Positions 3,990-63,446 of a stretch of DNA of 64,000 nt are shown piece by piece (the first letter of the stretch is position 1; the number at the start of each line of letters is the position of its first letter). The notes below the pieces were generated by a model. It was not told the origin of the DNA. It searched no databases and was given only the letters and a program-made list of their open reading frames with translations. The translations under genes were made by a program, and so were the position numbers. Source of the DNA: a bacterium (GTDB lineage: Bacteria; Patescibacteriota; Minisyncoccia; Moranbacterales; GWC2-37-73); the NCBI GenBank assembly GCA_003251635.1, contig QKEW01000001.1, positions 15,588 to 79,587 on the forward strand, written 5' to 3'.

Positions 3990-3997
3990 ATTTTTTT

Positions 3998-4366: not shown

Positions 4367-4380
4367 CGTGTTTTAAATCT

Positions 4381-4700: not shown

Positions 4701-4773
4701 ATTGTCAATGTGGTAGAATAATAAAGTGAATAACTTCTGGGAAAAAAATTCAAAACAGTTTTATTTTTGATTT

Positions 4774-5595: not shown

Positions 5596-5623
5596 ACTTG
5601 TTCTGGGTATAAAAACAAAAAAT

Positions 5624-6520: not shown

Positions 6521-6542
6521 TTTTTTTAAAATATTTTTAATT

Positions 6543-8099: not shown

Positions 8100-8130
8100 C
8101 AGGTACGCTGCTAGAGTTATTTTATTAAAA

Positions 8131-8167
8131 AGACCAGATTACTTCTTAGTTTATCTGGTCTTTTTTT
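8131..8167. terminator. Bidirectional intrinsic terminator between convergent genes
   Basis: Hairpin agaccagat...atctggtct followed by ttttttt, with aaaa upstream for the minus-strand gene. Confidence 0.6.
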
Positions 8168-9659: not shown

Positions 9660-9687
9660 GATTTTAAGTTAGAAGATCAAATTTATT

Positions 9688-11928: not shown

Positions 11929-11962
11929 GGAAATGTTTTTTAGGTGGATTATTTTGTTTTTT

Positions 11963-49090: not shown

Positions 49091-51070
49091 GTGATTTTTT
49101 TTGAATTTTTTATGCGATTTGAGATTGATTCAAAATTTCAACCTTCCGGTGATCAGCCGGGAGCCATCAAGGAATTGACACAAGGATTGAAAGACGGACA
49201 GCGTTTTCAAACGCTTTTGGGTGTGACCGGATCAGGTAAGACATTTACGATGGCCAACGTGATTGAGGCGGTGCAAAAACCCACTTTGGTAATTGCGCCC
49301 AATAAAACCCTGGCCGCTCAGCTGGCTCAAGAATTTCGCTTGTTTTTTCCCAAGAATTCGGCGGAATATTTCGTATCCTACTATGATTACTACCAACCGG
49401 AAGCTTATATTGCATCATTCGGAGCTTACATTGAAAAAGAAGTTCAAATCAATGAGGAGATTGATCGGTTGCGTCATGCGGCGACGGCCGCTTTGCTTTC
49501 GCGGCGCGACGTGGTGATTGTGGCCTCAGTTTCTTGCATCTATGGTTTGGGCTCGCCGGAATATTACAAAAAAGGTACGGTTGAAGTGATCGTTGGTCAG
49601 AAAAACAGTCGGGAAAAAATTATGCAAGGCTTGATTGAGATGCAATATCAACGATCGGAGATTTTGGAACGCGGAAAATTTCGAGTAGTTGGCGATGTGT
49701 TGGAAGTGATCATGCCTGGACGGGAAGTGATCACTCGGATTGAATTGGAAAGTGGCAAAGTCGCGTCGATTCGGGAATATGATTTTTTAACCGGTGAAAA
49801 ATTGGGACAATTGGAGAAAACTTTGATTTTTCCGGCCAAGCACTTTGTGGTGCCGGAAGAAATTTTGGAAAATTCATTTGAGCAGATCGAGCGTGAAGCA
49901 ATCGAGCGGGAAAAATTTTTTACTAAAAATGGTCAGAATTTGGAGGCGGAAAGAATTCGCCTGAGAACTCGGCATGATTTGGAAATGATGCGTGAAATCG
50001 GCTATTGCAATGGAATTGAAAATTATTCGCGTTATTTGACCGGACGAGAAGCTGGGGAAGCGCCTTATACTTTGCTGGATTATTTTCCTGAGGATTTTTT
50101 GTTGATCATTGATGAGTCGCACGTGACAATTCCGCAATTGGGCGCGATGTTCAATGGCGACAAATCGCGTAAAAATTCTTTGATCGAAAACGGTTTTCGT
50201 TTGCCAAGTGCCTATGATAACCGCCCGTTGAAATTTGAAGAATTTGAAGGCAAGATCAATCAAGCTATTTTCACTTCAGCCACTCCGGGAAATTATGAAA
50301 AGAAAAACTCAAGCCAAATTGTGGAACAGATCATTCGTCCAACCGGTCTTTTGGATCCGCAAATTGAAATCAAACCGGCTCGAGGGCAAGTCAAAGACGT
50401 GTTGGGTCAAATTGAGAAAGTGGTTGAAAAAAACCAACGGGTTTTGATCACGACTTTGACCAAGAAACAGGCTGAAGATTTGGCGGAATTTTTGCGGGAA
50501 AATGAAATTAAATCTGAGTATTTGCATTCCAATGTGGATACCTTGGATCGAATTCGAATTTTGGAAGGCTTGCGGCGCGGTGAGTTTGACGTTTTGGTGG
50601 GAGTCAATCTGCTACGCGAAGGTTTGGATTTGCCGGAAGTTTCTTTGGTGGCGATTTTGGATGCGGACAAGGAAGGGTTTCTGCGCAGTGAAACTTCTTT
50701 GATTCAGACCATTGGTCGAGCGGCTCGCAATGTCAATGGCAGAGTGATTCTCTATGCGGATGCCCCAACCGGTTCAATGAAAAAAGCCATTGGGGAAACC
50801 GAGCGTCGGCGCCAATTGCAAATGGACTACAATCAAAAACATCACATCACGCCCAAAACGATTGAGAAAAAAATCCAGTCAATTGTGGATCATGAAATCA
50901 ACCCGCAAATGGTCCAAGACTTTTCTCACTTGGAATCTTTGGAAAATATTGGAGCCTACATCAAGCAGAAAGAAAAAGAGATGAAGACGGCGGCCAAGAA
51001 TCTGGAATTTGAAAAAGCCGCCCTGATTCGAGATGAGATTTCCCAGTTGCGCAAATTGCAACTTAACTAA
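49091..51070 (+). CDS. uvrB: Excinuclease ABC subunit B (the true start is probably MRFEIDSKFQ at 49112)
   Basis: FQPSGDQPGAIKEL, helicase motifs GVTGSGKT and DESH, and a C-terminal UVR domain EFEKAALIRDEISQLR. 659 aa. Confidence 0.9.
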   Translation: MIFFEFFMRFEIDSKFQPSGDQPGAIKELTQGLKDGQRFQTLLGVTGSGKTFTMANVIEAVQKPTLVIAPNKTLAAQLAQEFRLFFPKNSAEYFVSYYDYYQPEAYIASFGAYIEKEVQINEEIDRLRHAATAALLSRRDVVIVASVSCIYGLGSPEYYKKGTVEVIVGQKNSREKIMQGLIEMQYQRSEILERGKFRVVGDVLEVIMPGREVITRIELESGKVASIREYDFLTGEKLGQLEKTLIFPAKHFVVPEEILENSFEQIEREAIEREKFFTKNGQNLEAERIRLRTRHDLEMMREIGYCNGIENYSRYLTGREAGEAPYTLLDYFPEDFLLIIDESHVTIPQLGAMFNGDKSRKNSLIENGFRLPSAYDNRPLKFEEFEGKINQAIFTSATPGNYEKKNSSQIVEQIIRPTGLLDPQIEIKPARGQVKDVLGQIEKVVEKNQRVLITTLTKKQAEDLAEFLRENEIKSEYLHSNVDTLDRIRILEGLRRGEFDVLVGVNLLREGLDLPEVSLVAILDADKEGFLRSETSLIQTIGRAARNVNGRVILYADAPTGSMKKAIGETERRRQLQMDYNQKHHITPKTIEKKIQSIVDHEINPQMVQDFSHLESLENIGAYIKQKEKEMKTAAKNLEFEKAALIRDEISQLRKLQLN

Positions 51071-51176: not shown

Positions 51177-52076
51177 ATGAGTATTGATGGCAGTGAAGAC
51201 ACAAGAAAAACGCCAGGCGATTTTTATTCCAAGGCTTTTTCTCGAAATATTGGTTTATTAAGTAAAAAGGAGCAAGACACTCTGAAAAAATCAAAAATTG
51301 CAATAGCGGGACTTGGTGGTGTTGGGGGTAACTATTGTTTAAGTATGGTCAGGACTGGTTTGGGAAATTTTTCTATTGCCGATTTTGATTCTTTTGAGGT
51401 TGCTAATATTAATAGGCAAGCCGGCGCTGAGGTGGATACTTTTGGGCGAGCTAAATGTGAAGTTATGGCGGAAAAAATATTAGCAGTTAACCCTCACGCT
51501 GAAGTTGAAAAGTTCTCAAAGGGTATAAACGAGGACAACATGGATGAATTTTTGCAAGAAGTCGATGTTGTTTTGGATGGTTTAGATTTTTTTGCAATCA
51601 AAGAAAGGTTGTTGCTTTTTCGTAAAGCTAGAGAAAAAGGGATTTTTGCGATAACTTCGCCCCCGGTTGGTTTCGGGGCGGCTTTATTGGTTTTTGATCC
51701 TAAGGGGATGAGTTTTGAGGATTATTTTGATATTCAAGCTGGAATGGAGGAAAAAGAAATGTTATTTCGTTTCGGAATTGGATTAACCCCGTCATTTATA
51801 CAAAGAGCCTATTTTCGTCCAGATTCAATAGATTTGTCTGGCAAAAAAACTCCATCTCTGAGTATTGGGACTCAAATGTGCAGTGCACTGGTTTCTTGTG
51901 AGGTTGTTAAGATAGTTTTAGATAAAAAAATTCGAGCTGTTCCTTGCTCTACTCATTTCGATCCCTATGTTCAAAAGTATAGGAAAATATATTTGCCTTG
52001 GGGAAACAGAAACCCCAAACAATTATTTAAGAGATGGGTAATTAAAAAAATTCTTAAAAATAGTGGGAAAATATGA
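51177..52076 (+). CDS. ThiF/MoeB/TcdA-family E1-like adenylyltransferase
   Basis: Rossmann nucleotide-binding motif IAIAGLGGVGGNYCLSMVRTG plus DFD...NINRQ. 299 aa. First gene of an 11-gene co-directional cluster. Confidence 0.7.
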   Translation: MSIDGSEDTRKTPGDFYSKAFSRNIGLLSKKEQDTLKKSKIAIAGLGGVGGNYCLSMVRTGLGNFSIADFDSFEVANINRQAGAEVDTFGRAKCEVMAEKILAVNPHAEVEKFSKGINEDNMDEFLQEVDVVLDGLDFFAIKERLLLFRKAREKGIFAITSPPVGFGAALLVFDPKGMSFEDYFDIQAGMEEKEMLFRFGIGLTPSFIQRAYFRPDSIDLSGKKTPSLSIGTQMCSALVSCEVVKIVLDKKIRAVPCSTHFDPYVQKYRKIYLPWGNRNPKQLFKRWVIKKILKNSGKI

Positions 52077-52741
52077 AAGAGGCTAAAAAATTTAAAAGAA
52101 GTAGTAAAATTCTAATAAAAGCGCGATATTTTGTTGGGGATTTGGTGATCTTCATGAGTCAGATATTTTTATATGTATCTGTTTCCAGAATACTTCGTTT
52201 TTATTTTAAGGCTAATAAGAAAATTGATTATCCGAGCAAGTCTATAAAAAATGGATCCTTGATAATCTCCAATCATCAATCAATGCTGGATCCCTTTGTT
52301 ATTACAGCCTACCTGCCTTTTAGGGATTTTTTGAAAATAATTCCAATAAGATATCCAACTAGTCATAGACATTTTATGAAGATGCCGTTTTTAGCTTTTT
52401 TTGGAGCTTACAGTATAGGGGGAGATAAAAGAAGTAAGATGTTGAAACTTTTTCTTACTAGAGAACATTTGGCCAGAGGAAGAAGTATAATGCTATTTCC
52501 TGAGGGTAAAATTTGTTATAATCCCAATGAGGGAATGAGTGAATTTCAAAAAGGTGTAACTTTTTTAACAGATATTGCCAACAACGTTTTGATTGTCAGA
52601 ATGGAGGGATTTCATAGTTGTGACTGGATTAAGCTTTGGCGAAAGCATAGGAGTATGGCTTTTAGTGATCTATATAATTTCCAGGGAAAAGATAAGGACG
52701 TCAACGATTTAAAGGAATGTCTGGAACAGTTACCTGTCTAA
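52073..52741 (+). CDS. PlsC-family lysophospholipid/aminolipid O-acyltransferase (OlsA/PlsC-like), N-terminal TM
   Basis: HX4D box ISNHQSMLDPF and FPEGK motif. 4-bp overlap with the upstream gene. 222 aa. Confidence 0.7.
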   Translation: MKEAKKFKRSSKILIKARYFVGDLVIFMSQIFLYVSVSRILRFYFKANKKIDYPSKSIKNGSLIISNHQSMLDPFVITAYLPFRDFLKIIPIRYPTSHRHFMKMPFLAFFGAYSIGGDKRSKMLKLFLTREHLARGRSIMLFPEGKICYNPNEGMSEFQKGVTFLTDIANNVLIVRMEGFHSCDWIKLWRKHRSMAFSDLYNFQGKDKDVNDLKECLEQLPV

Positions 52742-52762
52742 TTAATTCGTAAAGATACTGTT

Positions 52763-53452
52763 ATGGAAATCGCAAATTGTTCTAGGTGGAATGATTCGTG
52801 CGTGAATAAATACTTTTCTATTGAGGAAAAAAAGACTTTTGAAGGAATGGATTTTGCTAGAAAAAATGATTGGATTTTGGGTCGAATTGCAGCTAAGCGA
52901 GCAGTAGCAAGACTTTTGGTAAAAAAATTTTCCCTAAGAATTGCTCATAATGATGTTAATATAGTTTATTTAGAAAGTGGCAAACCGCAGGTTGAAATTT
53001 TGAATCTTGAGATTAGCAAAAAAATAATAGAATATGGACTTGAGAATAATATTGATATTTCCATATCTCATTCTGGATCAATAGCTTTAGCGGCAGTTTC
53101 AATTATGAGTGAAGATGGCTGCGTGGGGATTGATATTGAAAGAGAGAGGAAATTTTCTTCACAAGTAAGGGGAGCATTTTTAAATAAAGAAGATGAGATT
53201 GTTATTTCCAGAAAACCGCCGGTAAATTTGAACAAGATGGTAACTTTTTATTGGTGTGCCAAAGAAGCATTTCTTAAGGCTAAAGGAGTTGGTATTAGGC
53301 AGCATCCAGCCACAGTAAGTCTTTTTTTTCAAGAAAAAAATTGTGGAAAAATTATTGATAAAACGGAACCTTCGATCAAAGCTTTTTTTCAAAGAATAAA
53401 TTTTTCGAAAGGGCATGTGGCGGCTGTAGTGAATATTGCATCTAAGTATTGA
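52763..53452 (+). CDS. 4'-phosphopantetheinyl transferase (Sfp/EntD-type)
   Basis: GIDIERERKF and FYWCAKEAFLKAKG correspond to PPTase motifs (G-D-E and W-KEA-KA-G). 229 aa. Confidence 0.7.
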   Translation: MEIANCSRWNDSCVNKYFSIEEKKTFEGMDFARKNDWILGRIAAKRAVARLLVKKFSLRIAHNDVNIVYLESGKPQVEILNLEISKKIIEYGLENNIDISISHSGSIALAAVSIMSEDGCVGIDIERERKFSSQVRGAFLNKEDEIVISRKPPVNLNKMVTFYWCAKEAFLKAKGVGIRQHPATVSLFFQEKNCGKIIDKTEPSIKAFFQRINFSKGHVAAVVNIASKY

Positions 53453-53493
53453 TAGGTAATTTTTATAAATCGTCGGAATAAAAAATAAAAACT

Positions 53494-53724
53494 ATGGATA
53501 AGATAACGGAGAGGGTTTATGAAGTTATCAACAAAACGCTGGAGGGTGAAAAAAAAGTTTTAACGTTGGAAGCTAAAATAGAGGATATATGCAAAGACTC
53601 AATTCAAATATTTGGTTTGATAATGGCATTTGAAAAAGAATTTCAAAAAAAAGTAACTTACGAAGATTTAATAAGCATTGAAACTGTCGGAGATGTTATT
53701 GATTACATAAGAACCAATTATTAG
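53494..53724 (+). CDS. Acyl carrier protein (stand-alone, 76 aa)
   Basis: DICKDSIQIFGLIMAFEKEF aligns with the ACP LGADSLDTVELVMALEEEF region; Ser is in DSI. Confidence 0.65.
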   Translation: MDKITERVYEVINKTLEGEKKVLTLEAKIEDICKDSIQIFGLIMAFEKEFQKKVTYEDLISIETVGDVIDYIRTNY

Positions 53725-53727
53725 AAA

Positions 53728-54510
53728 TTGAAATTTATGAAGTTAAAAAATATAACTAAAACAACTATGATTTTTTTTACATTTTTGATTATTGGTATAG
53801 TTCTTTTCCTGACTTTAAATGGGTTTTTTAACGGATTTAGTTTTAAGCTCAAATATGGTACTCTTTCTTTTTTTGGAACCAAGGAAAAAATGAACACCTT
53901 AAATCAGGAAAGTATTACTGATTCCAAGAATGGAAATGAAATTGCAACAATTATAATTCATGGAGCTGGAGCCAGTTATTACAAAGATGTTTATGGGATG
54001 ACTGTTTGGCTAAAAAGTCAGGGTTTTAATCCGATTTCATTTGATTATGATTATAAGGATTCACCGGATATTTCCGCAGAGAAACTAGCGGAGTTCGTTG
54101 ACGAGGTGCTTGTAAAAACTGATAAAAGTAAAGTTAATATTTTAGGATTATGTTTGGGTGGTTTGCTTGCTAAATACTATGTGCAAGAATTCAATGCAAG
54201 TGATAAAATTGAGAAATTCGTTTCTGTTGTTTCACCAGCAAAAATTATTCCAAAAAAAGAACCAGCTTACCAATATAATAAATTCTTTTCTTTTGATCCG
54301 GAGCCTTGGAATTTTGTTTTAAAGGAATTGGAAAATAAAAATCCAATCGATAATCATCTTTATATTTATTGTAAAAAAGATTTATTAGTTCCAAGTAAAT
54401 ACCAATTTTCTCAAGAGGGAAATTATCTGGGCTTAAGTTGTGGACATTCTTTCATAAATTCTAATCCGGAAATATTAAATAGGACTGTCGATTTTTTTCA
54501 GAAAAAATAA
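53728..54510 (+). CDS. Membrane-anchored alpha/beta-hydrolase-fold enzyme with a Cys in the nucleophile elbow (GLCLGG)
   Basis: N-terminal TM, oxyanion IIIHGAGAS, and a nucleophile elbow ILGLCLGGLLA with Cys instead of Ser (compare PHA synthase GxCxG and dienelactone hydrolase GYCLGG). Confidence 0.5.
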   Translation: MKFMKLKNITKTTMIFFTFLIIGIVLFLTLNGFFNGFSFKLKYGTLSFFGTKEKMNTLNQESITDSKNGNEIATIIIHGAGASYYKDVYGMTVWLKSQGFNPISFDYDYKDSPDISAEKLAEFVDEVLVKTDKSKVNILGLCLGGLLAKYYVQEFNASDKIEKFVSVVSPAKIIPKKEPAYQYNKFFSFDPEPWNFVLKELENKNPIDNHLYIYCKKDLLVPSKYQFSQEGNYLGLSCGHSFINSNPEILNRTVDFFQKK

Positions 54511-54529
54511 AAACAATAAAACCTTACTA

Positions 54530-55723
54530 ATGTTTAGCAGGATAAAAATATTATTATCTTTTGCACTCCGAGATATATCCAAAAGTAGGACTACTTTAAT
54601 ACTGACAGTTTTTAGTTTGACGGCTATATTTACGGCAGTTATTTTGTCCACTAGTATTTTGGATGGTTTTCAAGCTACTTTGCAAAATGGTTCAATAAAC
54701 ACTGGCGGTCATCTCACTGTAAAACCAGCAAAAGGTGAGAATATAAAAAATATAGATTTGGTTCAAAATGATTTGGGTCTCAATGAAGAGATTGAAGGCT
54801 ACAGCACAAGGAGTCATGCTGGCCTTATTATGGAAATTGACGGATCTTTTAAAGGGGTTGGATATGCAGCATTAGGGGTGGATCCCATGATGGAAAGAAG
54901 TGCCTCGCAAGTTCCAAATTACTTGGTATCTGGACGTTATTTGCTTCCATCTGACGAGAGAAGCGTGGTTATTGGTGTCACCTTGGCTGATTTGTTGTCT
55001 GGCTTATTATATGACGGAAAAGAAATAAGTGTTGGTGAAGAGGTGAGATATATTTCACCTCTGACTGGCAAAGCTAGAGACTACACGGTAGTGGGGATTG
55101 TTGATACTAAATATTTTCATTCAAATTGGAGTTCTTATTTTCCTAAAAAAGAATTGGAATGGCTAGATAATTCTAAAAAGGATAGTGAAATTATAGTTAG
55201 GTTAAAGGACCCAAGTAATATTGAAGATCAGCGACAGGTTTTACAAAATGAACTGAATGGCGAAAAAGTTTTTACCTGGAATGAAAAAGAGGGATATATT
55301 TTTAACATAGTAATGGCTATTAAGTTTATTACGGGAAATATAAGTAATCTCTTGATAATCACAGCCTTTGTTATTGTTAGCGTTATTATTTACATAAATG
55401 TGTCACAGCGACGCAGGCAAATTGGAATAATAAAATCAATGGGAGCTAAAAATAGTTTTGTAGTGGCTATTTATATGGTAGAGGCTTTGGTTTATTTTAT
55501 ACTTTCTTTTTTGTTGGCTTTTTTGGTTTTTTTGTTAATCCACATTTTTTTTGTGAATAATCCAATACCTTTGCTTATTGGAGATTTTCGCACCGTAATT
55601 GTTAAAAGCGATATGGTAAAAATATTTTTTATTCTTATTTTATCAACAATTTCTGGTAGCATGATTCCGTCTTATATTGCTGCTAGAACGCAGATTGTTA
55701 ATGTTTTAAGAGGGGAATCCTGA
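54530..55723 (+). CDS. ABC transporter permease, FtsX/MacB/LolC-like (TM1, periplasmic domain, three C-terminal TMs)
   Basis: FtsX-domain C-terminus ...QRRRQIGIIKSMGAKNSFV... followed by three TM helices. 397 aa. Confidence 0.8.
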   Translation: MFSRIKILLSFALRDISKSRTTLILTVFSLTAIFTAVILSTSILDGFQATLQNGSINTGGHLTVKPAKGENIKNIDLVQNDLGLNEEIEGYSTRSHAGLIMEIDGSFKGVGYAALGVDPMMERSASQVPNYLVSGRYLLPSDERSVVIGVTLADLLSGLLYDGKEISVGEEVRYISPLTGKARDYTVVGIVDTKYFHSNWSSYFPKKELEWLDNSKKDSEIIVRLKDPSNIEDQRQVLQNELNGEKVFTWNEKEGYIFNIVMAIKFITGNISNLLIITAFVIVSVIIYINVSQRRRQIGIIKSMGAKNSFVVAIYMVEALVYFILSFLLAFLVFLLIHIFFVNNPIPLLIGDFRTVIVKSDMVKIFFILILSTISGSMIPSYIAARTQIVNVLRGES

Positions 55724-55730
55724 TGAGCTT

Positions 55731-56930
55731 ATGAATTATTTTATAAGTAAATTTAGAATAATTATTTCTTTCGCTCTGAGAGATTTTTCTAAGAGTCGTT
55801 TTGTTTTGATGTTTACAATTATTGGTTTAAGCTCAGCTTTTACAGCTGTGTTTTTATCTAGGGGTATTTTGGACGGCTTTCGAACTACCCTGGAGAGTGG
55901 TGCTGTTGATGTCATTGGACACTTGATTGTATATCCTCAAGAAGGGGAGGATGAAATAGAAAAGGTTGATTCACTAATCGAAAAAATAAAAAAGATTGAT
56001 AATGTTCAAGCTCTTAGTCTTAGGAATCAGACGTTTGTCATGCTTGAATACAAGGGTCATGTCCCCGGTTCCTATACTGGATTGGGTATAGATTTTAAAC
56101 AAGAATCTCAAACAACTAAATTGCCATTTGATATTGTTGAGGGTAGATTCTTGAGTGGAAAAGATTCCAAAGAAATAGTTATTGGTCAAAATTTGGCAGA
56201 CGCTTTGGTGGATCTAGAGTATGATGGCGAGAAAGTTCCAGTTGGTGCTAAAGTTCAAGTCATAACAACTTCAGGTCAAAAAATTTCCTATAAGGTGGTT
56301 GGAATATTGGATGGTAAAACATTTGTTCCAAATTGGATGGCGTATTTCAATAAGGATGAGATGGAAAGAATTGAGCCTCAAACTAAAAATAATCAAATCA
56401 TAATAAAATTGAAAGACGAAAATTTTTTGGAGGAAACTAGAGAATTGATTCAAAGTCAGAATCCAAATGTTAGAGTTAGGACTTGGCATGAGGAAGCTAC
56501 TTATGTAGATGACATGGTTTTGGCGACTCAATTTATAACAGGTTCAATTGTAGTCCTTTTGGTTATTTCAGTGATAATAGTTACCAGTGTGATCATATTT
56601 ATCAATGTTTATAATCGTCGTCGCCAAATTGGTATTTTGAAATCAATGGGGGCCAGTAATCGTTTTATTATTATAATTTATTTAAGTGAAGCTCTTCTTT
56701 ATTCAACAACTGCTTTTATTTTTGGATTTTTATTTTTCATGTTGATTAACATAAAGTCAATTGAAAATCCTATCCCTCTATTGATTGGAGATTTTCACAC
56801 AGAATTTAACTCGCGCGATATTGTCCCCCTAGCTTTGATTTTTGTGGTTGCTACTTTTGGAGGTAGTTTATTTCCCGCTTTGTCTGCAGCTAAAACTCGT
56901 ATAGCTGATGTTTTGCGAAATGTTATATAA
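55731..56930 (+). CDS. Second paralogous FtsX/LolE-like ABC permease
   Basis: Same architecture; ...NRRRQIGILKSMGASNRFI... 399 aa. Confidence 0.8.
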   Translation: MNYFISKFRIIISFALRDFSKSRFVLMFTIIGLSSAFTAVFLSRGILDGFRTTLESGAVDVIGHLIVYPQEGEDEIEKVDSLIEKIKKIDNVQALSLRNQTFVMLEYKGHVPGSYTGLGIDFKQESQTTKLPFDIVEGRFLSGKDSKEIVIGQNLADALVDLEYDGEKVPVGAKVQVITTSGQKISYKVVGILDGKTFVPNWMAYFNKDEMERIEPQTKNNQIIIKLKDENFLEETRELIQSQNPNVRVRTWHEEATYVDDMVLATQFITGSIVVLLVISVIIVTSVIIFINVYNRRRQIGILKSMGASNRFIIIIYLSEALLYSTTAFIFGFLFFMLINIKSIENPIPLLIGDFHTEFNSRDIVPLALIFVVATFGGSLFPALSAAKTRIADVLRNVI

Positions 56931-56979
56931 TTTATTATTATATATTTGTAAGCATAATTTTAAAATGAAGTTTAAATAA

Positions 56980-57675
56980 ATGGAAGCTTTGGTAAGCATT
57001 AGAAATGTTTTTAAAGAATATGTTATGAGCAGCCAGTTGACGATACCGGCTCTTAACGGAATTAGCCTGGATATAATCAAAGGCGAATTTTTGGCGATTA
57101 CTGGTCACTCTGGCTCAGGAAAAAGTACCTTGCTGAATTTGCTGGGACTTTTAGATGATCCTACTCGGGGTGAAATATATTTTGCGGGAAGTGACATTCA
57201 TAATTTTACAGAAAAACAAAAAGTCAGCTTTCGTCTTAATGCTATAAGTTTTGTTTTTCAATTTTTTAATTTAATAGAAAATTATACTGCTGTTGAAAAT
57301 ATTAGTTTTCAATTATTATTGCAAGGATATAGTGGAAGGGAGGCAAAAAATAGAGCTAGGGAAATTATTGATTTTCTTGGACTTTCCGATAGGGCTTCAT
57401 TTTTTCCTCATGAGCTTTCTGGCGGGCAACAACAAAGAGTGGCGATTGGTCGCGCCTTAGCCAAAGACTCTTTGCTTATTTTGGCTGATGAGCCCACAGC
57501 CCATCTTGATTCCAAGAATGGAGAAGCCATTATTGAACTTTTACATGATATAAATAAGCAATTCAATCGCACAATAGTGCTTGTTACCCATGAAAAAGAA
57601 GAGGCTCGTCACTCTGACAGAAATATTATGATGCGTGATGGAAAAGTGGTGAATATAGTCAATGTGCAAAAATAA
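56980..57675 (+). CDS. ABC transporter ATP-binding protein (MacB/LolD type)
   Basis: Walker A GHSGSGKSTLL, signature LSGGQQQRVAIGRAL, and Walker B ILADEPT. 231 aa. Confidence 0.9.
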   Translation: MEALVSIRNVFKEYVMSSQLTIPALNGISLDIIKGEFLAITGHSGSGKSTLLNLLGLLDDPTRGEIYFAGSDIHNFTEKQKVSFRLNAISFVFQFFNLIENYTAVENISFQLLLQGYSGREAKNRAREIIDFLGLSDRASFFPHELSGGQQQRVAIGRALAKDSLLILADEPTAHLDSKNGEAIIELLHDINKQFNRTIVLVTHEKEEARHSDRNIMMRDGKVVNIVNVQK

Positions 57676-57866
57676 TTTTCTCAAATTTCTTTTCAGGCAA
57701 AAAATATGCTACAATATTGAAAATAGTAGTTTTTTAAACTCTATTAAAATCGATTATATTTCAGGAATATTTTTTGCTTTTGTTGCTGGCACCTTTTGAT
57801 TGCTAATGGAGAATTTTAAGTTATATGATTCGATTTTTGATTTAATTCGTTGCAAATTAAACATCA

Positions 57867-59429
57867 TTGATGAGTAATTTTGTAAAGTGGATTTTGATTT
57901 TGTTCTTGCTTGCGGCTATTGGATCCGTATTTTTTTGGTATTTCTTTATTTTTAAAAAAGCTGACAGTTCCGATGTTGATGAAATATCAGAGGAAACTTA
58001 TGTCGAAGTTGGGCCAGTTAAAAAAATTATTGAAATAGATGATGCTCGAGTGGCTTCCGATGACTCTTTTTCACTGGCTTTTCCGGTTAGTGGAAAAATA
58101 GAGAAAATTTATAAGCATGAGGGTAAATTTGTTTTTGAAGGAGATGAAATTGTTAAGTTGGAGACAACCGAGTTGGAGCTTCAATCTAAAATTTTGCAAA
58201 CAAAGCTATTGGCGGCTCAGGCTAATTTGGATAAGCTTTATGCTGGTGCGGTAGAGGAATATAGAAATTTAGTTGACGAGGAGTTATCTGGCGCTAAATA
58301 TGGTTTGGCAGAAGCTAGCAAGGGGGTTGTGAATGCAATTCAGGCTCTTGCCAATCAAATTGACGATGCTGTTAGGGGTAAGACGGATGAACTTTTTTCC
58401 GGTCCAAGAAGTTCAAATCCACAACTACTGGTGACTATTGGAAATTCAGATTTAGAGAATGATATTGAAGGGGGTAGGGCTGAATTAGAATCGGATATGG
58501 ATGATATTGTAGATATGGCAGAATCAATAAAGACGTCTGATGATCTTGAGAAAAAAACCTCCAAGGCAAGAAAGATTACTGAAAACACCCAAGAATATTT
58601 AACCAAGCTAGCCTCCTTGATTAATCAGTTAAGTGTTTCGGGTGAACTAACTCAGGACCTGATTGATAGATATAAATCTGAGGTTTCTTTGGCTCGGACT
58701 CAGGTTAACACCGCTGTCGCATCTCTGGGTTTGGTAATGGAAGATTATTCGGAACTTGAGGTTGATAGAAAAGTGGCTAAAAGTAAATTGTATTTAGTTG
58801 AAGCTAATCCTCGAGTTGAGGATATAACTATAGCTCAAGCTGGGATTGATGAAATAAGTATTCAAATAGATATTTTAAATAATCACATTAAGGATTCCAC
58901 TATCAAGGCAAGTAAGGCTGGTTTTTTAAAGAAAATATTTTTTGACGAGCAAGAGATAATCCCAGAAGGTGTTCCGGAGGTTATCTTGGAAAGTGTAGAT
59001 CTTTATGTAGAAGCTGATATTCCAGAGGAGAATATTTCAAAAATCGATAGTGGGGTTATCGCGACTGTCAAATTCGAAGCGATAGGAGGAAAACAATTCA
59101 AAGGCGAAGTTGAGCTTATTGAGCCTTACGCCATAGAAAAAGATGGTGATGTTTTTTATCGTTCTCATGTAAGGATTGATGATCTTGATTCTGGGGTGAG
59201 GGTTGGGATGACGGCTGAGGTTTCCATTGAATCATTAGAGGATATTTCATCCTTGAGAATTCCTATTGGATATGTTATTGATCGCGGAAGTAAAAGTTTC
59301 GTAATAGTTTCAAAGGGTTTGGTAAGGGAGGAGGTTGAAATAGAAAAAGGCATAGAAGACGAAGGTTTTATTCAGGTTCAAGGAGGTCAAATAAGTGAAG
59401 GGGATAAAATCATTTTTCCAAAAATTTAA
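57867..59429 (+). CDS. HlyD/MacA-like periplasmic adaptor (membrane fusion protein) with a long coiled coil
   Basis: N-terminal TM, lipoyl-like VSGKIEKIYKHEGKFVFEGDEIVKLE, an alpha-helical hairpin of about 250 aa, and a C-terminal beta-barrel GMTAEVSIE. Confidence 0.65.
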   Translation: MMSNFVKWILILFLLAAIGSVFFWYFFIFKKADSSDVDEISEETYVEVGPVKKIIEIDDARVASDDSFSLAFPVSGKIEKIYKHEGKFVFEGDEIVKLETTELELQSKILQTKLLAAQANLDKLYAGAVEEYRNLVDEELSGAKYGLAEASKGVVNAIQALANQIDDAVRGKTDELFSGPRSSNPQLLVTIGNSDLENDIEGGRAELESDMDDIVDMAESIKTSDDLEKKTSKARKITENTQEYLTKLASLINQLSVSGELTQDLIDRYKSEVSLARTQVNTAVASLGLVMEDYSELEVDRKVAKSKLYLVEANPRVEDITIAQAGIDEISIQIDILNNHIKDSTIKASKAGFLKKIFFDEQEIIPEGVPEVILESVDLYVEADIPEENISKIDSGVIATVKFEAIGGKQFKGEVELIEPYAIEKDGDVFYRSHVRIDDLDSGVRVGMTAEVSIESLEDISSLRIPIGYVIDRGSKSFVIVSKGLVREEVEIEKGIEDEGFIQVQGGQISEGDKIIFPKI

Positions 59430-59442
59430 TTAAATAGATTGT

Positions 59443-60567
59443 ATGAAAAATCAGTTAATAGCGATTCGTAATGCTGTTGAGCGGTTTGTGTATAAAAATA
59501 TTTTTCGAAAAATATTTTTTTTATATGATCCGGAAAAAATTCATGATAGGATGATATTTTTTGGTAGGTGGTTGGGTAATTATTCATTTACTCGAACGCT
59601 AACGTGCCTATTCTTTGGATACAAAAATAAAATTTTGAAACAAGAAATTTCAGGATTAAATTTCAAAAATCCAATTGGTTTGGCTGCGGGATTTGATAAA
59701 AACGCTGAACTTACCAATATTTTACCCAGTGTTGGGTTTGGTTTTATGGAAGCTGGTTCAATAACAGGGGAACCGTGTGAAGGAAATAAAAAACCGCGCC
59801 TTTGGAGACTTAAAAAATCAAAGGGGCTTTTAGTATATTATGGGTTGAAAAATGATGGCTGTGAAGTAATTGCTAAGCGCCTAAATGCTAAACAAAAATT
59901 TTTTCCACTTGGAATAAGTATAGCCAAAACCAACAACAAAGATACAGTTTCCCTTGACGGCGGAGTAGCTGATTATGTTAAAGCTTATAAAAACCTCGTG
60001 GATTTAGCTGATTATATAACTGTCAATATAAGCTGCCCCAATGCTTATGGCGGATGTCCTTTTATTAGTAAGGAATATTTAAATAAACTTCTAGCTGGAT
60101 TAATGAATATTGAAAGTTCAAAACCGATTTTTTTGAAGCTATCCCCAGATCTTAGTCATGAGGAGATTGATATTATTGTTGAAGTTGCTGGGGAATATAA
60201 CGTAACAGGCTTTATTTGCACTAACCTTACCAAGAAGAGGGAGAATGCGAATTTAAAAGATGCAGACATTTCTCAGGTGGGTGGAATGAGTGGCAAGGTG
60301 GTTGCCGAGATGGCTGATGACTTGATAAAATACATATATTCCTCCACAAAGGGCGGGTTTGTTATAGTGGGTTGCGGAGGGGTTTTTTCAGCCCAGGATG
60401 CTTATAGAAAAATAAGATTGGGAGCCTCACTGATCCAATTGATTACGGGTATGATATATGAAGGACCTCAGTTGATTGGGGAGATAAACAGAGAGTTAGC
60501 TTTAATGCTTAAAAAAGATGGATTCTCATCAATTACTCAGGCAATTGGGGTTGATAATAGATCGTAA
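59443..60567 (+). CDS. Class-2 (membrane-associated, quinone-type) dihydroorotate dehydrogenase-like flavoenzyme
   Basis: GFGFMEAGSITGEPCEGNKKPRLWRL matches the DHODH GFGFVE(I/V)G(S/T)VTP.PQ.GNP.PR(L/I)FRL box, and the N-terminal amphipathic extension is typical of class 2. 374 aa. Confidence 0.7.
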   Translation: MKNQLIAIRNAVERFVYKNIFRKIFFLYDPEKIHDRMIFFGRWLGNYSFTRTLTCLFFGYKNKILKQEISGLNFKNPIGLAAGFDKNAELTNILPSVGFGFMEAGSITGEPCEGNKKPRLWRLKKSKGLLVYYGLKNDGCEVIAKRLNAKQKFFPLGISIAKTNNKDTVSLDGGVADYVKAYKNLVDLADYITVNISCPNAYGGCPFISKEYLNKLLAGLMNIESSKPIFLKLSPDLSHEEIDIIVEVAGEYNVTGFICTNLTKKRENANLKDADISQVGGMSGKVVAEMADDLIKYIYSSTKGGFVIVGCGGVFSAQDAYRKIRLGASLIQLITGMIYEGPQLIGEINRELALMLKKDGFSSITQAIGVDNRS

Positions 60568-60575
60568 CTTTATTA

Positions 60576-61259
60576 TTGTTTATGAAAAAAATTGATTTTT
60601 ACTTGGTTTGTTCGGGTGACAAAATTGAAAAAGCAAATGGTTTGATTTTATCGGAATACGGAAAAGAAGGATATGTTGATTTAACTGGAGAAAAATCAGG
60701 TTTAAATCCTTTGAAGGGGGATTTGAACTCGCAATTATTTACTTTTTTAGCTTTGAGTGATGGATTTGTGCTTGGTACAGTGAGTATTGTTGTTGATGAA
60801 AAGTGGGGACTTCCATTGGATGAAATTTTTAAGATTGAAGCTGATGGACTTAGAGCTTTCGGGGAAAAATGTGCAGAGGTTGCACGGTTAGCTGTGAATC
60901 GTCAGGCTGGGGATTTTTTTGGAATTGACCAACGTAAAATACAAATGTCTATATCATTGTCATTGTTTAAAATGGTTTTTTATTGTGCTAAAGCTAGAAA
61001 TATTGATATTCTTTGCATAACTATAAATCCTAAACATGAAAATTTCTATGAGGCTTTGGGTTTTGAATCGGTCGGTGAAATGAAAAGTTACGATACTGTT
61101 AATGGAGCGCCAGCTTTACTGAAAATCCTTAGATTGAAAAACCTAGACGTTATGAAAAATAATTTTGTTGGAAGAGAGATTTTGGAAAATCCTATTGATA
61201 TGAATGTTTTTGACCTTAAGGAGAAAAAAGACAAGATTATTTTTTCTCAAGAATTTTAG
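60576..61259 (+). CDS. GNAT-fold N-acyltransferase resembling acyl-ACP-dependent N-acyl amino acid synthases (OlsB/FeeM/Acetyltransf_5-like)
   Basis: EVARLAV...ITINPKHENFYEALGF pattern as in the OlsB/NAS/LuxI-like acyl-ACP N-acyltransferase fold. 227 aa. By-eye call; needs an HMM. Confidence 0.45.
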   Translation: MFMKKIDFYLVCSGDKIEKANGLILSEYGKEGYVDLTGEKSGLNPLKGDLNSQLFTFLALSDGFVLGTVSIVVDEKWGLPLDEIFKIEADGLRAFGEKCAEVARLAVNRQAGDFFGIDQRKIQMSISLSLFKMVFYCAKARNIDILCITINPKHENFYEALGFESVGEMKSYDTVNGAPALLKILRLKNLDVMKNNFVGREILENPIDMNVFDLKEKKDKIIFSQEF

Positions 61260-61265
61260 TTAAAA

Positions 61266-62327
61266 TCAAATATTTTTTATCATTTTTTCAAGATCTTTGC
61301 GGCCTGAGATTGAGGTTGGCTTATTGGCATAACCAGCCCTAAAAAGAGCCACGAAAGCATCGCTTTTTAAGTTTGGAAATTTTTCCGTGAAATAATTTTC
61401 AATTTCTTTTCGAATACGTTCATGTTTGGGCAAAAGGCCACCTTTTTCTAATTGCCCGTTTAAAATAAAGGCTATAGGTCCAAAAAGTGGTTGAATTGAA
61501 ATGTCATATTCTGACATTTTTAACCAGACTGACTGTAAGGCTCGACCTCCTTGAATGTAGGTATGAGGATGTTGCTTTTTTGGTATGGTCATTAGGCCTA
61601 TTGCATTAGAATGTTTGATATTATTTCTGGTATGAAGAACTGATCCAATTCCTAAAAGTTTCCAAATAAAAGGAAGTTGATTGGCTATGGCTATAGAGGG
61701 TTTAAAGAAATGTCTTTTTGGACCTAATTCTAAACTTTCAAGAGAAAGTCCGTCACTGTGAATTTTTTTTCCAAATCTAAGCATTCGAACAAGATTTTCG
61801 CGCAATTTTTGATCTTCCCAAAGAATGGTGTCGTGGGTTGATATCAATTTTGATAGTTTGGATATTTCTTGCGCAGAGTCAATCCACTGTAAGTTAACTT
61901 GATTTTCCTGAGCTAATTTGATTGCTTCGTTCTTTAGCTCAGGGTGAATAGGTTTTTTGAAAAATTTGCGTCTGTTTGTTTTTCTTTTGGTTAAGTATTC
62001 ATATAGATGCAAAGATTTCTTGGAATCTTCTTTTTCAAGAGATATTTTAGCTAAGGGTTCACCTGCATTATGTTTTAGAAGTTCTATTTTAATTTCCCAG
62101 CCCAGATGTTTTGCTTGTTGATGGATATTTTCCAGCACGGTTCCCAAGCTTACGAAATCGGCAAAATGGTTAATGTTGTAAATATGATTAGCATGAGTAT
62201 TTTCGTGGTCATGAAACAGAAAGATATTATTCTTGTCTTTTTTAAAAAGCCAAGGTTGGCAATTATCGGCAGATGGAGCCAATTGTCCCGCGGCCAATAG
62301 AATATCAAGAGGGTTTGATGAATTCAT
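61266..62327 (-). CDS. Double-length nitroreductase-family protein (Acg-like)
   Basis: N-terminal APSADNCQPW, the nitroreductase S-x-x-N-x-QPW box. 353 aa, about twice the single-domain size, with a second half ending in a G-rich flavin region. Confidence 0.5.
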   Translation of the reverse strand: MNSSNPLDILLAAGQLAPSADNCQPWLFKKDKNNIFLFHDHENTHANHIYNINHFADFVSLGTVLENIHQQAKHLGWEIKIELLKHNAGEPLAKISLEKEDSKKSLHLYEYLTKRKTNRRKFFKKPIHPELKNEAIKLAQENQVNLQWIDSAQEISKLSKLISTHDTILWEDQKLRENLVRMLRFGKKIHSDGLSLESLELGPKRHFFKPSIAIANQLPFIWKLLGIGSVLHTRNNIKHSNAIGLMTIPKKQHPHTYIQGGRALQSVWLKMSEYDISIQPLFGPIAFILNGQLEKGGLLPKHERIRKEIENYFTEKFPNLKSDAFVALFRAGYANKPTSISGRKDLEKMIKNI

Positions 62328-62721
62328 GAAAGTGATATTAATTTCCTTTATTTTTATTTTAGCAGTTTATTTTTTGAAAGCAAAGATCGTGCTTATTTTA
62401 TTGCAAACATAAATTAGGTGAGTTAAGTCTTTGCTGTAAAAACAATTAGATATTTTTTGCTCAACTTTAAATCATTGGATTTTCTTATATATTTACTTAA
62501 ATACAAATATGACCCAAATGATTATTTTTTGTTGTAGGCAGGCCGGATTTAGCCTAGTTTGAAAAGGTAAATATCATATCTAGGCTATTTCTAAATCGCT
62601 TGAGGCTCTGTTTGCTTGGTGTTATCATAAAAATGGTAAAAATATTTTGTAAAAACAATAGTTTATATAATATGTCAACTTAAATTCTGTAAAAAATTAA
62701 ATTGTAGTAATAATAAAAATT

Positions 62722-63312
62722 ATGCGGAAAATAGCTTTTATAATTCTGGGATATAATCAAAACAAGAAAAATGTGCCGGCTTTTGGAAAAATCGAATCTT
62801 TTTTTCAGGCCAAAAATTTTCAAACGGTTATGGTTGACATTGATTGGAAATATAAAACTCTTTCGGATTATGTGGCTCAGTTTGAAAAAATTTATCTGGA
62901 AAATGTCAAAAAAGATGACCAAATTTGTTTTTTAGGTTTTTCTCTTGGAGCTATGATTGCTTTGATATCTTCGGAAAAACTGAAACCAAAATTTCAAATT
63001 CTCTGTTCTTTGTCCCCCTATTTCAAGGAAGATTTGCCCAGGATTAAAAATTGGTGGAAGGTTTTTTGGGGTAAAAGGAGGATGGAAGATTTTGCCAAAT
63101 TTTCTTTGAATAAGCTGGCTAAAAATATTCCCACCAAAACCATAATTCTAGCCGGTGACAAAGAGGATTGGGAAGTTGAAATCAGAGCCAAGGAAGCTCG
63201 GCAAAAAATACGAAACAGTCAATTGATTTTTATTCCTAATGCTAAGCATGACATTGGGCAGACTGAATATCTGACAGAGGTTGAAAGAATAATTTCAGAA
63301 AAGGTTTTTTGA
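62722..63312 (+). CDS. Small alpha/beta hydrolase (serine hydrolase)
   Basis: Nucleophile elbow GFSLGA. About 196 aa with a short fold. H in PNAKHD near the C-terminus. Confidence 0.55.
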   Translation: MRKIAFIILGYNQNKKNVPAFGKIESFFQAKNFQTVMVDIDWKYKTLSDYVAQFEKIYLENVKKDDQICFLGFSLGAMIALISSEKLKPKFQILCSLSPYFKEDLPRIKNWWKVFWGKRRMEDFAKFSLNKLAKNIPTKTIILAGDKEDWEVEIRAKEARQKIRNSQLIFIPNAKHDIGQTEYLTEVERIISEKVF

Positions 63313-63418
63313 TTAAATCAGTCAAGGACTATCCCCGATCTAGTTTAATTTTCTTTTGTAAAATCACCAATCCTTCGCTTTTTTGGTAAGTATTATAATA
63401 CGTATTATTTTTCAATTA

Positions 63419-63446
63419 CCCCCGTCGGGAAACTGGCGGGGGTTTT
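63419..63446 (+). terminator. Intrinsic terminator downstream of the hydrolase gene
   Basis: cccccgtc-gggaaact-ggcggggg followed by tttt. Confidence 0.55.

Follow-up and report, generated by a model that had tools for sequence, protein, structure and literature searches.

The locus described here lies in a window of 64,000 nucleotides, the whole stretch of Moranbacteria DNA that was analysed. A run of 11 co-directional genes extends along the + strand from 51177 to 61259, with intergenic gaps of no more than 49 nt apart from a single exception of 191 nt. The cluster opens with a gene (51177..52076, + strand) for a ThiF/E1-like adenylating enzyme (PF00899, 140 bits), predicted to be an ATP-dependent cyclase of an N-acyl amino acid carboxylate, whose closest PDB relative is the t6A cyclodehydratase TcdA. 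This is followed by a PlsC/LPLAT-family acyltransferase with an HX4D motif (52073..52741, + strand; PF01553, 34 bits), which had been called OlsA-like in the first-pass annotation. The PF01553 match and the motif place it at the level of family rather than of OlsA orthology. Its top NCBIfam matches were acyl-ACP-phospholipid O-acyltransferase domains, and its role in the cluster is a putative one. Next come an Sfp-type 4'-phosphopantetheinyl transferase (PPTase; 52763..53452, + strand; PF01648, 49.6 bits; TIGR00556, 55.8 bits), predicted to prime the carrier protein, and a dedicated acyl carrier protein (ACP) of 76 aa with a DSI serine motif (53494..53724, + strand; PF00550), which scored 50-56 bits with NCBIfam ACP models, below their cutoffs. 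A membrane-anchored, lipase/thioesterase-like alpha/beta-hydrolase (53728..54510, + strand) carries a conserved G-x-C-x-G elbow in which Cys is the nucleophile. Profile matches identified the genes at 54530..59429 (+ strand) as a MacB-type ABC exporter with a HlyD-like adaptor, composed of two FtsX permeases (54530-55723 and 55731-56930, + strand), the ATPase (56980-57675, + strand) and the adaptor (57867-59429, + strand).

The last two genes of the run encode a dihydroorotate dehydrogenase (DHODH, PyrD; 59443..60567, + strand; NF003652, 352 bits against a cutoff of 267) and the FeeM-like protein that is the subject of this analysis. Six nt beyond the FeeM-like stop codon is the end of a convergent gene (61266..62327, - strand) for a nitroreductase-superfamily flavin-dependent oxidase (FDO), Acg/Rv1355c-type, a predicted C-alpha/C-beta desaturase. 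It matched NF011424 with 173 bits (model positions 328-673), NF005901, the Rv1355c/TrzS family, with 155 bits (374-718) and the Acg model NF047509 with 131 bits; a PDB sequence search with the FDO gave no match. The ThiF protein scored 342 bits with NF006077 (above its cutoff of 266), 360 with NF011424 and 236 with NF011425, the last at model positions 311-588. Both FDO and ThiF fall under the full-length didomain cutoffs, because each is a single domain.

The DHODH, whose loop with the catalytic Cys (NISCPNAYGGCPF) is unusual, was also considered as a candidate for a dedicated desaturase of the pathway, and was rejected. The NISCPN..GGxPF loop is common to 80/80 close metagenomic DHODH relatives, none of which (0/80) lies near FeeM, ThiF, FDO or ACP genes, and the gene is missing from an otherwise complete cluster at locus L007. 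On these grounds we take this DHODH for an ordinary PyrD of the lineage's type.

The open reading frame at 60576..61259 (+ strand), 227 aa if counted from TTG 60576, was confirmed as first annotated, together with its position as the last gene of the operon and the two sequence segments that had drawn attention to it. An ATG at 60582, two codons past the TTG, is the start in the public gene call and in all homologues; the gene therefore probably begins there, and we give it as 60582..61259 (+ strand; 225 aa).

The protein is, by family and predicted fold, a genuine member of the FeeM family of N-acyl amino acid synthases. Its top Pfam match was PF21926 (FeeM) with 100.3 bits against a cutoff of 27 (E=1e-28), in an alignment that pairs residues 20-182 with positions 2-154 of the 158-position profile, and its sole PDB sequence match was FeeM itself (2G0B, E=1e-22). 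An AlphaFold2 model (pLDDT 86, pTM 0.86) searched with Foldseek again returned FeeM 2G0B first (E=1e-16, target-normalised TM 0.85-0.87), nine orders of magnitude ahead of the runner-up GNATs at about 1e-7. Although overall identity to FeeM is only ~30%, 17 of 21 product-pocket and phosphopantetheine (Ppant)/ACP-contact residues are identical and the other 4 are conservative replacements. The residues compared, which include FeeM Glu94, Asn142, Tyr149, Tyr163, APA168-170, His145 and Phe148, were taken from the published list of product-pocket positions (PMC9654057, Table 1) and from the work that assigns His145 and Phe148 to the Ppant tunnel and ACP contact (PMC11685415).

These residues account for both segments singled out in the first-pass annotation. 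The EVARLAV segment (60876..60896, + strand; aa 101-107) coincides with the FeeM Glu94 strand, and its Glu, which aligns with Glu94 of the product pocket, is invariant across a 12-sequence alignment. The INPKHENFYEALGF segment (61023..61064, + strand; aa 150-163) coincides with the FeeM Ppant/ACP-contact helix and holds the equivalents of Asn142, His145, Phe148, Tyr149 and Phe154. The acetyl-CoA P-loop [QR]xxGx[GA] had been described as absent, and a regular-expression search over the whole protein indeed found no match; carrier-protein-dependent GNATs likewise do without it (PMC11685415). Ordinary GNAT families stayed below threshold, with 13.4 bits for Acetyltransf_4 and 12 bits for Acetyltransf_10 against cutoffs of 24.3 and 23.6. 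The earlier proposal of a synthase of N-acyl amino acids in place of an acetyl-CoA GNAT is thus borne out, with PF21926 and no ordinary GNAT family as the best profile. Membership of Acetyltransf_5/OlsB or of TIGR03694, the two models that the first-pass annotation had put forward as a check, is not supported: neither PF13444 in Pfam nor TIGR03694 in NCBIfam matched the protein at E<=10.

FeeM (2G0B; PF21926) is an acyl-ACP-dependent N-acyl-tyrosine synthase from the environmental-DNA fee cluster, where its partner ACP is FeeL. The Moranbacteria protein shares with it the Pfam family, the lack of a CoA P-loop and a small ACP gene alongside. It differs in having a C-terminal extension of ~40 aa and a variable, low-confidence loop at aa 36-47, and the fee cluster, unlike the Moranbacteria cluster, is without ThiF or FDO partners.

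To place the gene in context, we compared its neighbourhood across Patescibacteria. The cluster is conserved and horizontally mobile among many lineages, including Moranbacteria, Paceibacteria, Kaiserbacteria, Zambryskiibacteria, Doudnabacteria and others, and its synteny is kept over FeeM identities of 35-52% despite differing flanking genes. Its invariant core consists of ThiF, the PlsC-like acyltransferase, the PPTase, the ACP and FeeM, usually joined by the FDO, a lipase and the MacB/HlyD exporter. ACP and PPTase genes accompany FeeM in all versions (18 non-redundant loci); in 10 loci FeeM has the ACP gene directly upstream, and the DSI serine motif of the ACP is conserved in 18 loci. The PlsC-type acyltransferase has an intact HX4D motif in 14 loci, where it is kept as NH(Q/R)SxxDPF. 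The exporter was found with FeeM at loci L005, L007, L008, L016, L038, L039, L049 and L149, and in other lineages a GDSL lipase replaces the alpha/beta-hydrolase. Two Paceibacterota versions (L041 and L042) have no FDO within 10 kb and still retain the five-gene core; a search for divergent FDO genes in these two and in L008 found none. Among the unassigned open reading frames of 15 related clusters we found no acyl-ACP synthetase, ketosynthase (KS) or fatty-acid synthase (FAS), and instead GDSL lipases, a PAS-sigma factor, NrdD, FtsW, glycosyltransferases and a methyltransferase. In the genome, which UvrB homologues place in Moranbacteria, the entire cluster forms a low-GC3 island, and scans for promoter and terminator consensus sequences gave nothing above background.

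Outside the Patescibacteria, counterparts of the FeeM-like, ThiF and FDO proteins can be joined in one polypeptide. All three proteins of the cluster matched NF011425/PRK14852, at successive model positions, and they are colinear with the 989-aa protein WP_011176612.1 from plasmid pDV of Nitratidesulfovibrio vulgaris Hildenborough. Identities to this protein are 28% for the FeeM-like protein, 41% for ThiF (residues 314-588) and 24% for the FDO, which aligns to residues 622-969 (E=2e-19). In contrast to the separate genes and ACP of the cluster, WP_011176612.1 is a single polypeptide of uncharacterised function with no dedicated ACP. It sits in an XrtA/PEP-CTERM exopolysaccharide locus; the Moranbacteria protein differs from the exosortase-associated type (TIGR03694) in that it does not match that model, and no exosortase or PEP-CTERM genes occur within the 64-kb window. 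A Desulfosoma locus has two FeeM-like genes followed by a ThiF-FDO didomain, which is the oxzAB layout, and a Bdellovibrio plasmid likewise carries the FeeM-ThiF-FDO triad. Linkage of ThiF to FeeM-like genes is thus repeated across phyla. Many FeeM-family genes of other phyla are solitary, and the ThiF family of the cluster is also found without FeeM or FDO, beside MMPL/DUF1302/DUF1329 genes.

The biochemistry of this triad has been described (PMC10404671, PMC12856293, bioRxiv 10.1101/2020.06.11.147165), and it defines the acyl-oxazolone pathways OxzAB of Pseudoalteromonas rubra, TyzABC, and TrzAS of M. tuberculosis, with tyrazolone, phenazolone and tryptazolone as products. The likeness of the Moranbacteria cluster to these systems is one of family and gene content, namely a GNAT-fold synthase, a ThiF cyclase and an FDO. 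As in tyz, ThiF and FDO are separate genes, and the Rv1355c (TrzS) family model matched across the whole FDO domain. There are also several differences. In vitro, acyl-CoA is the donor for the characterised OxzA, TyzA and TrzA, none of which has an ACP or PPTase dedicated to it, whereas the Moranbacteria cluster has both; oxz, tyz and trz lack a PlsC-like acyltransferase, a lipase and a MacB exporter, and their hosts are Proteobacteria and Actinobacteria. Here the host is a bacterium of the candidate phyla radiation (CPR), and ThiF and FDO stand at the two ends of an operon of 11 kb.

On balance we favour, at somewhat better than even odds, the reading in which the FeeM-like protein, ThiF and the FDO form an acyl-oxazolone-type unit whose acyl donor is most likely the holo-ACP of the cluster, a reading built on sequence comparison, a structural model and analogy. 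The FeeM-like GNAT would take a medium- or long-chain acyl group off its phosphopantetheine thioester and attach it to an amino acid, probably aromatic, at the alpha-amino group. The thioester would be carried by the cluster ACP, primed by the adjacent PPTase; the ACP is a plausible donor because ACP and PPTase accompany FeeM in all Patescibacteria versions, with the ACP gene directly upstream of it in 10 loci. ThiF would then adenylate the carboxylate of the N-acyl amino acid and cyclise it, and the FDO would desaturate the C-alpha/C-beta bond. By analogy with OxzAB, TyzABC and TrzAS, this sequence would yield a 2-alkyl-4-ylidene-oxazol-5(4H)-one, or a compound derived from it, which the MacB/HlyD pump would export. 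Scavenged acyl chains may be supplied or re-routed by the lipase and the PlsC-like acyltransferase. What the analysis itself shows is the family, fold and pocket of the FeeM-like protein, its missing CoA P-loop, the co-occurrence of the genes and the fusion of the three enzymes elsewhere. Against it, no version of the cluster contains an acyl-ACP synthetase, ketosynthase or FAS gene that could load the ACP, and because the FDO is missing in L041 and L042, a desaturated oxazolone would not be the universal end product. Furthermore, characterised FDO chemistry requires O2, and many CPR bacteria are anaerobic. The reliance of OxzA, TyzA and TrzA on acyl-CoA and the occurrence of this ThiF family apart from FeeM and FDO also speak against it.

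The first-pass annotation had described the cluster as ornithine-lipid-like. With ThiF and nitroreductase-like genes at its two ends, both fused to a FeeM domain in the 989-aa protein, this is no longer the best reading, although a second acyl-transfer step may take place, the PlsC-like acyltransferase being a conserved core member. An OlsB/OlsA-like aminolipid route would have the FeeM-like enzyme use acyl-ACP to N-acylate an amino acid, to which the PlsC-like enzyme would attach a second, O-linked chain to give a diacylated amino-acid membrane lipid; in a variant, ThiF would adenylate a fatty acid released by the lipase and load it on the ACP in the manner of an E1 enzyme, which would leave no step missing. 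We regard this route as unlikely. OlsB/OlsA and GlsB/GlsA (PF13444 plus PF01553) likewise pair a GNAT-superfamily N-acyltransferase with a PlsC-family O-acyltransferase and draw on acyl-ACP. In its favour are the 14 core loci with an intact HX4D acyltransferase, the acyl-ACP-dependent O-acyltransferase domains among the best matches of that enzyme, the recurrence beside the cluster of a lipase/acylhydrolase of two non-orthologous types, and the persistence of the five-gene core without the FDO. However, the OlsB-type profiles PF13444 and TIGR03694 are unmatched, OlsA requires a 3-hydroxyacyl group and the cluster has no FAS or hydroxylase gene, and ThiF and FDO are fused to the FeeM domain in proteins that have no ACP. 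The ols and gls loci, for their part, hold no counterparts of the ThiF, FDO, ACP, PPTase and exporter genes. As for ThiF as a loading enzyme, the carboxylate of an N-acyl amino acid is the substrate of all characterised ThiF proteins of this type, and an E1-like ligase for fatty acids is not known (PMC12596934).

The ACP could also be the acceptor in place of the donor, an arrangement that we consider quite unlikely. The FeeM-like enzyme would then use some other thioester, ThiF would adenylate the N-acyl amino acid, the ACP thiol would capture the adenylate or open a saturated oxazolone, and a hydroxyl would receive the N-acyl-aminoacyl group from the PlsC-like enzyme. Such a scheme fits the general reactivity of saturated 5(4H)-oxazolones as acyl donors; these compounds are also obligate intermediates in TrzS (PMC12856293). 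All five core genes would receive roles through canonical E1 adenylate-to-thioester chemistry, and clusters that lack the FDO would be accounted for. Yet the scheme is without precedent and leaves the acyl donor of the FeeM-like enzyme unexplained; FeeM itself is acyl-ACP dependent, and the adjacency of ACP and FeeM is read more simply as donor and enzyme.

Very unlikely, in our view, is an N-acyl amino acid as the exported end product itself, as a signal, surfactant or antibiotic, with ThiF and FDO unrelated to it. Solitary FeeM-family genes elsewhere, the many metagenomic synthases of this kind that serve as precedent, and the MacB/HlyD exporter upstream of the FeeM-like gene speak for it, as does the extracellular accumulation of N-acyl-Trp intermediates by TrzAS strains (PMC12856293). 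The colinear FeeM-ThiF-FDO fusion and the repeated linkage of ThiF across phyla argue instead for a shared pathway. Finally, an ordinary acetyl-CoA GNAT or a LuxI-type acyl-homoserine-lactone synthase is effectively refuted: for it speak the GNAT fold, the 12-13 bits of Acetyltransf_4/10 and BjaI as a distant structural neighbour (Foldseek E=4e-6, TM ~0.53), and against it scores under the Pfam cutoffs, the lack of a P-loop, the absence of any Autoind_synth (LuxI-type) Pfam match at E<=10 and a conserved FeeM pocket.

CPR/Patescibacteria are ultra-small, mostly uncultured episymbionts, generally described as without fatty-acid or lipid biosynthesis and with almost no specialised metabolism. 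Literature searches for an N-acyl amino acid or oxazolone cluster in this group returned nothing relevant. If the acyl-oxazolone reading is correct, it would extend a biosynthesis shown so far in Proteobacteria and Actinobacteria with acyl-CoA to a carrier-protein-linked form. There is also a small chance that the core serves, in bacteria without fatty-acid synthesis, a carrier-protein-templated building of lipids. The lipase would scavenge acyl chains from a host, N-acyl amino acids would be made from them, and ThiF would activate a carboxylate in E1 style onto the ACP thiol or by way of a reactive azlactone; the PlsC-like enzyme would hand the unit on to a hydroxyl, and MacB would export the product, a new amino-acid envelope lipid. 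In that case the core would not be an oxazolone end-product pathway; this reading draws on the survival of the core without the FDO in some lineages and on the lipase that is usually nearby. The cluster offers an expressible handle on how CPR bacteria deal with acyl chains and on the lipids that they display or secrete toward their hosts, and pDV of N. vulgaris Hildenborough and the Bdellovibrio plasmid would make the fused or clustered system accessible to biochemistry in cultured, tractable organisms. A separate observation concerns the homologues of ~300 aa (P0007-P0012), considered as candidate TyzA orthologues: one of them, at locus L066, is followed by a nitroreductase-like gene, and another lies near AMP-binding and reductase genes.

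The gene that closes a run of 11 co-directional genes (51177-61259), as the first-pass annotation had it, is on sequence and modelled fold very probably a true N-acyl amino acid synthase of the FeeM family, and a new member of that family. Its ORF exists at 60576-61259 (+ strand) and opens TTG-TTT-ATG; because P0001, the 225-aa public gene call, starts at ATG 60582, as do all homologues, its length is probably 225 rather than 227 residues. The two segments singled out earlier, EVARLAV (residues 101-107, nt 60876-60896) and INPKHENFYEALGF (residues 150-163, nt 61023-61064), are both present. In Pfam the best match is FeeM (PF21926, 100 bits against a cutoff of 27). An acetyl-CoA GNAT was rejected, since ordinary GNAT families in Pfam scored only 12-13 bits, under their cutoffs, and the acetyl-CoA P-loop [QR]xxGx[GA] has no match anywhere along the protein. 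The proposed OlsB/Acetyltransf_5 membership, for which PF13444 and TIGR03694 had been named as the HMMs to check, was also abandoned: the Pfam search gave no PF13444 match at E<=10, and the NCBIfam search none to TIGR03694. The sole NCBIfam match was the N-terminus of a 989-aa model, NF011425/PRK14852, and the sole match among all PDB sequences was FeeM (2G0B, E=1e-22).

An AlphaFold2 model (pLDDT 86, pTM 0.86) matched FeeM at E=1e-16 with a target-normalised TM of 0.85-0.87, as against E near 1e-7 for the next-best GNATs and 4e-6 for the CoA-dependent AHL synthase BjaI. Using a HMMER alignment, we transferred onto the protein the residues of the FeeM N-dodecanoyl-tyrosine pocket (PMC9654057, Table 1) and the two residues that contact Ppant/ACP, His145 and Phe148 (PMC11685415, citing Van Wagoner and Clardy 2006); the numbering offset is valid, because all 21 residue names agree with the FeeM chain letters. 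Seventeen of the 21 positions are identical and 4/21 conservative, against ~30% overall identity, and the two segments correspond precisely to the Glu94 strand and the His145/Phe148 helix. Family membership, fold and pocket conservation are thus established, and the core of the earlier call (FeeM-like, non-acetyl-CoA, probably ACP-dependent) is supported. The family has 2,085 cluster representatives at E<=1e-3 and only 10 at 1e-30, and the window's clade is therefore small. In other phyla, FeeM domains are fused on either side to c-di-GMP-binding PilZ domains (P0098, P0100, P0114, P0135, P0125), a hint that c-di-GMP may control how N-acyl amino acids are made; tandem FeeM-FeeM proteins also occur.

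A FeeM-like enzyme is in itself unsurprising; the useful lead is a conserved, expressible acyl-lipid cluster in bacteria without fatty-acid synthesis. On the + strand, ThiF (51177-52076) is followed by a PlsC-like acyltransferase (52073-52741), an Sfp-type PPTase (52763-53452), an ACP (53494-53724), an alpha/beta-hydrolase (53728-54510), two FtsX permeases, an ABC ATPase and an HlyD-like adaptor (54530-59429), a DHODH (59443-60567) and the FeeM-like gene (60582-61259), with intergenic gaps of 49 nt or less, save one of 191 nt. The gene for a 353-aa nitroreductase-like protein, a predicted flavin-dependent oxidase (FDO), is convergent (61266-62327, - strand) and ends 6 nt past the FeeM-like stop codon.

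Three of these genes match successive parts of NF011425, namely FeeM-like at 37-217, ThiF at 311-588 (236 bits) and nitroreductase-like at 621-800. Two further models are matched by ThiF and the nitroreductase-like protein: NF011424 for the ThiF-FDO didomain (360 and 173 bits) and NF005901 for the Rv1355c family (82 and 155 bits). Searching plasmids by tblastn, we traced PRK14852 to a real protein of 989 aa, WP_011176612.1, which Nitratidesulfovibrio vulgaris Hildenborough encodes on plasmid pDV within an XrtA/PEP-CTERM locus; a PilZ protein is also encoded near this fusion gene. The three window proteins align colinearly to it, at fusion residues 38-217 for FeeM-like (28% identity, E=3e-18), 314-588 for ThiF (41%, E=7e-75) and 622-969 for nitroreductase-like (24%, E=2e-19), which establishes the fusion. 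Further support for the FeeM-ThiF-FDO link comes from a Desulfosoma locus, where two FeeM-like genes immediately precede the gene for a ThiF-nitroreductase didomain protein of 745 aa (NF011424, 865 bits), and from a Bdellovibrio plasmid carrying FeeM-like, ThiF and nitroreductase-like genes. On that plasmid (pBdHAGR2 of cultured Bdellovibrio sp. HAGR004, AP029178.1; L152/L153), an ABC ATPase, an FtsX permease and ThiF are followed, beyond the record origin, by a FeeM-like gene of 415 aa; the nitroreductase-like gene is ~7 kb off, and ACP, PPTase and acyltransferase were not found at these loci. Several of the closest MAG loci are deposited as 'uncultured Bdellovibrionales' and have the gene order of Moraniibacteriota loci.

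Scanning species-representative genomes, we obtained 60 loci, whose ORFs we then called and searched with the window proteins. The FeeM-like gene is accompanied by ACP and/or PPTase in 18 non-redundant Patescibacteria loci, with ThiF in 14/18, the PlsC-like acyltransferase in 14/18, a nitroreductase-like gene in 10/18 and often a MacB/HlyD exporter. The ACP gene is immediately 5' of the FeeM-like gene in 10 loci, and the ACP DSI serine motif and acyltransferase HX4D motif are kept throughout. The same cluster recurs with other flanking genes in lineages whose FeeM-like proteins are just 40-52% identical. Co-occurrence is thus established, and the cluster is widespread in Patescibacteria; a literature search found no description of such a cluster there. 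In Brocadiaceae, Omnitrophota and Thermodesulfobacteriota the FeeM-like gene is mostly solitary or beside ThiF and nitroreductase-like genes. One Moraniibacteriota-type version has a PAS-domain/sigma-70 fusion directly after the ACP gene (L016 13265-14350; L038 11105-12277; L149 7893-9011), a candidate dedicated regulator.

FeeM-ThiF-FDO is the triad of published acyl-oxazolone pathways, so the cluster is not best read as ornithine-lipid-like, as first annotated. Such pathways comprise OxzA and the ThiF-nitroreductase fusion OxzB in Pseudoalteromonas rubra (bioRxiv 10.1101/2020.06.11.147165), and, in M. tuberculosis, TyzA, TyzB and TyzC, with FeeM and BjaI as the nearest structural relatives of TyzA (PMC10404671), and TrzA with TrzS (Rv1355c; PMC12856293). 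In all three an acyltransferase first forms the N-acyl derivative of an aromatic amino acid, ATP-dependent cyclisation by the ThiF part follows, and the FDO desaturates C-alpha/C-beta (bioRxiv 10.1101/2020.06.11.147165; PMC10404671; PMC12856293). The nearest solved relative of the window ThiF is TcdA, which cyclodehydrates t6A (PMC12596934). The cluster is a previously undescribed version of the oxazolone-type N-acyl amino acid pathway: split, carrier-protein-linked and extended by the PlsC-like acyltransferase, lipase and exporter. Here holo-ACP, primed by the PPTase, would carry the acyl chain, which the FeeM-like enzyme would move onto an amino acid; ThiF would adenylate and cyclise the product, the FDO would desaturate it to an acyl-oxazolone or derivative, and the MacB/HlyD system would export it. 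That ACP is the acyl donor is rather likely, the oxazolone route is slightly favoured, and the composite of synthase, ACP donor, oxazolone route and export is moderately likely.

Two other readings are kept alive by features that fit this scheme poorly: an OlsBA-like diacyl-aminolipid pathway, and a more novel scheme in which a unit activated by ThiF is handed to the carrier protein and then moved on by the PlsC-like enzyme. Genes for an acyl-ACP synthetase, ketosynthase or FAS were absent from every version of the cluster examined, so ACP loading is unaccounted for by cluster genes, and the acyltransferases characterised from the Oxz, Tyz and Trz systems use acyl-CoA. Two Paceibacterota loci have no FDO gene within 10 kb and are flanked by unrelated genes, which leaves ThiF, acyltransferase, PPTase, ACP and FeeM as the invariant core. 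Lipases/acylhydrolases recur beside the cluster without being orthologous: the window's clade has a Cys-type alpha/beta-hydrolase, other clades a GDSL lipase. Other members of this ThiF family, with ~50% identity to the window's, have DUF1329, DUF1302, MMPL and PEP-CTERM genes as neighbours and no FeeM or FDO gene.

At L147 (a Deltaproteobacteria MAG) and L148, about 3000-9500, the order is DUF1329, DUF1302, ThiF, MMPL with a PEP-CTERM protein; L147 adds patatin and AMP-binding genes, and FeeM or FDO genes were not found within 6 kb. The window's hydrolase at 53728-54510 has an N-terminal membrane anchor, weak matches to palmitoyl-protein thioesterase, PhaC and PhaZ7, and, as in L002, L005 and L007, a conserved G-x-C-x-G nucleophile elbow with Cys, as in PHA synthases, in place of the usual Ser.

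Overall, the DHODH inside the cluster resembles class 2 (NF003652, 352 bits, above cutoff), with an N-terminal extension and quinone-dependent PyrD as best matches. It reads NISCPNAYGGCPF at the position of NVSSPNTAGLR in human DHODH, with a class-1-type catalytic Cys (NISCPN) replacing the class-2 Ser, and has a distinctive GGxPF loop, which is GGCPF only in cluster-embedded copies and GG[E/Q/L]PF in others. Because the Cys loop is common to 80/80 close metagenomic relatives (51-63% identity; L067-L146), none near FeeM, ThiF, FDO or ACP genes, and the otherwise complete L007 cluster lacks DHODH, we rejected a cluster-specific role; the enzyme is the kind of PyrD usual in these lineages, most likely carried along as a passenger.

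By composition the cluster appears to be an acquired island, because GC3 is 0.23-0.33 in every gene from ThiF through a second small hydrolase (51177-63312) and 0.43-0.46 in adjacent uvrB and clpB. That alpha/beta-hydrolase (62722-63312, GFSLG serine elbow), 3' of the cluster and equally low in GC3, adjoins the cluster in none of the other loci examined. In Candidatus Moraniibacteriota JBAQEZ010000003.1 (L005/L009, about 880-12700) the whole cluster is bracketed by fusA (EF-G) and tuf (EF-Tu), 5' of the S10 ribosomal-protein operon, a striking position that would fit a mobile island. The remainder of the window holds ordinary housekeeping genes; ORFs 23840-25639 (599 aa) and 37097-38134 (345 aa) had no Pfam match at E<=1e-5. 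UvrB (49112-51070) is 74-81% identical to Candidatus Moranbacteria proteins, which places the host in Moranbacteria (CPR/Patescibacteria). Between two UvrA paralogues (27675-30608 and 33036-35846) are uvrC (30610-31863) and a gene of the PGA_cap family (31866-32894). At 63418-63443 there is a strong terminator-like hairpin.
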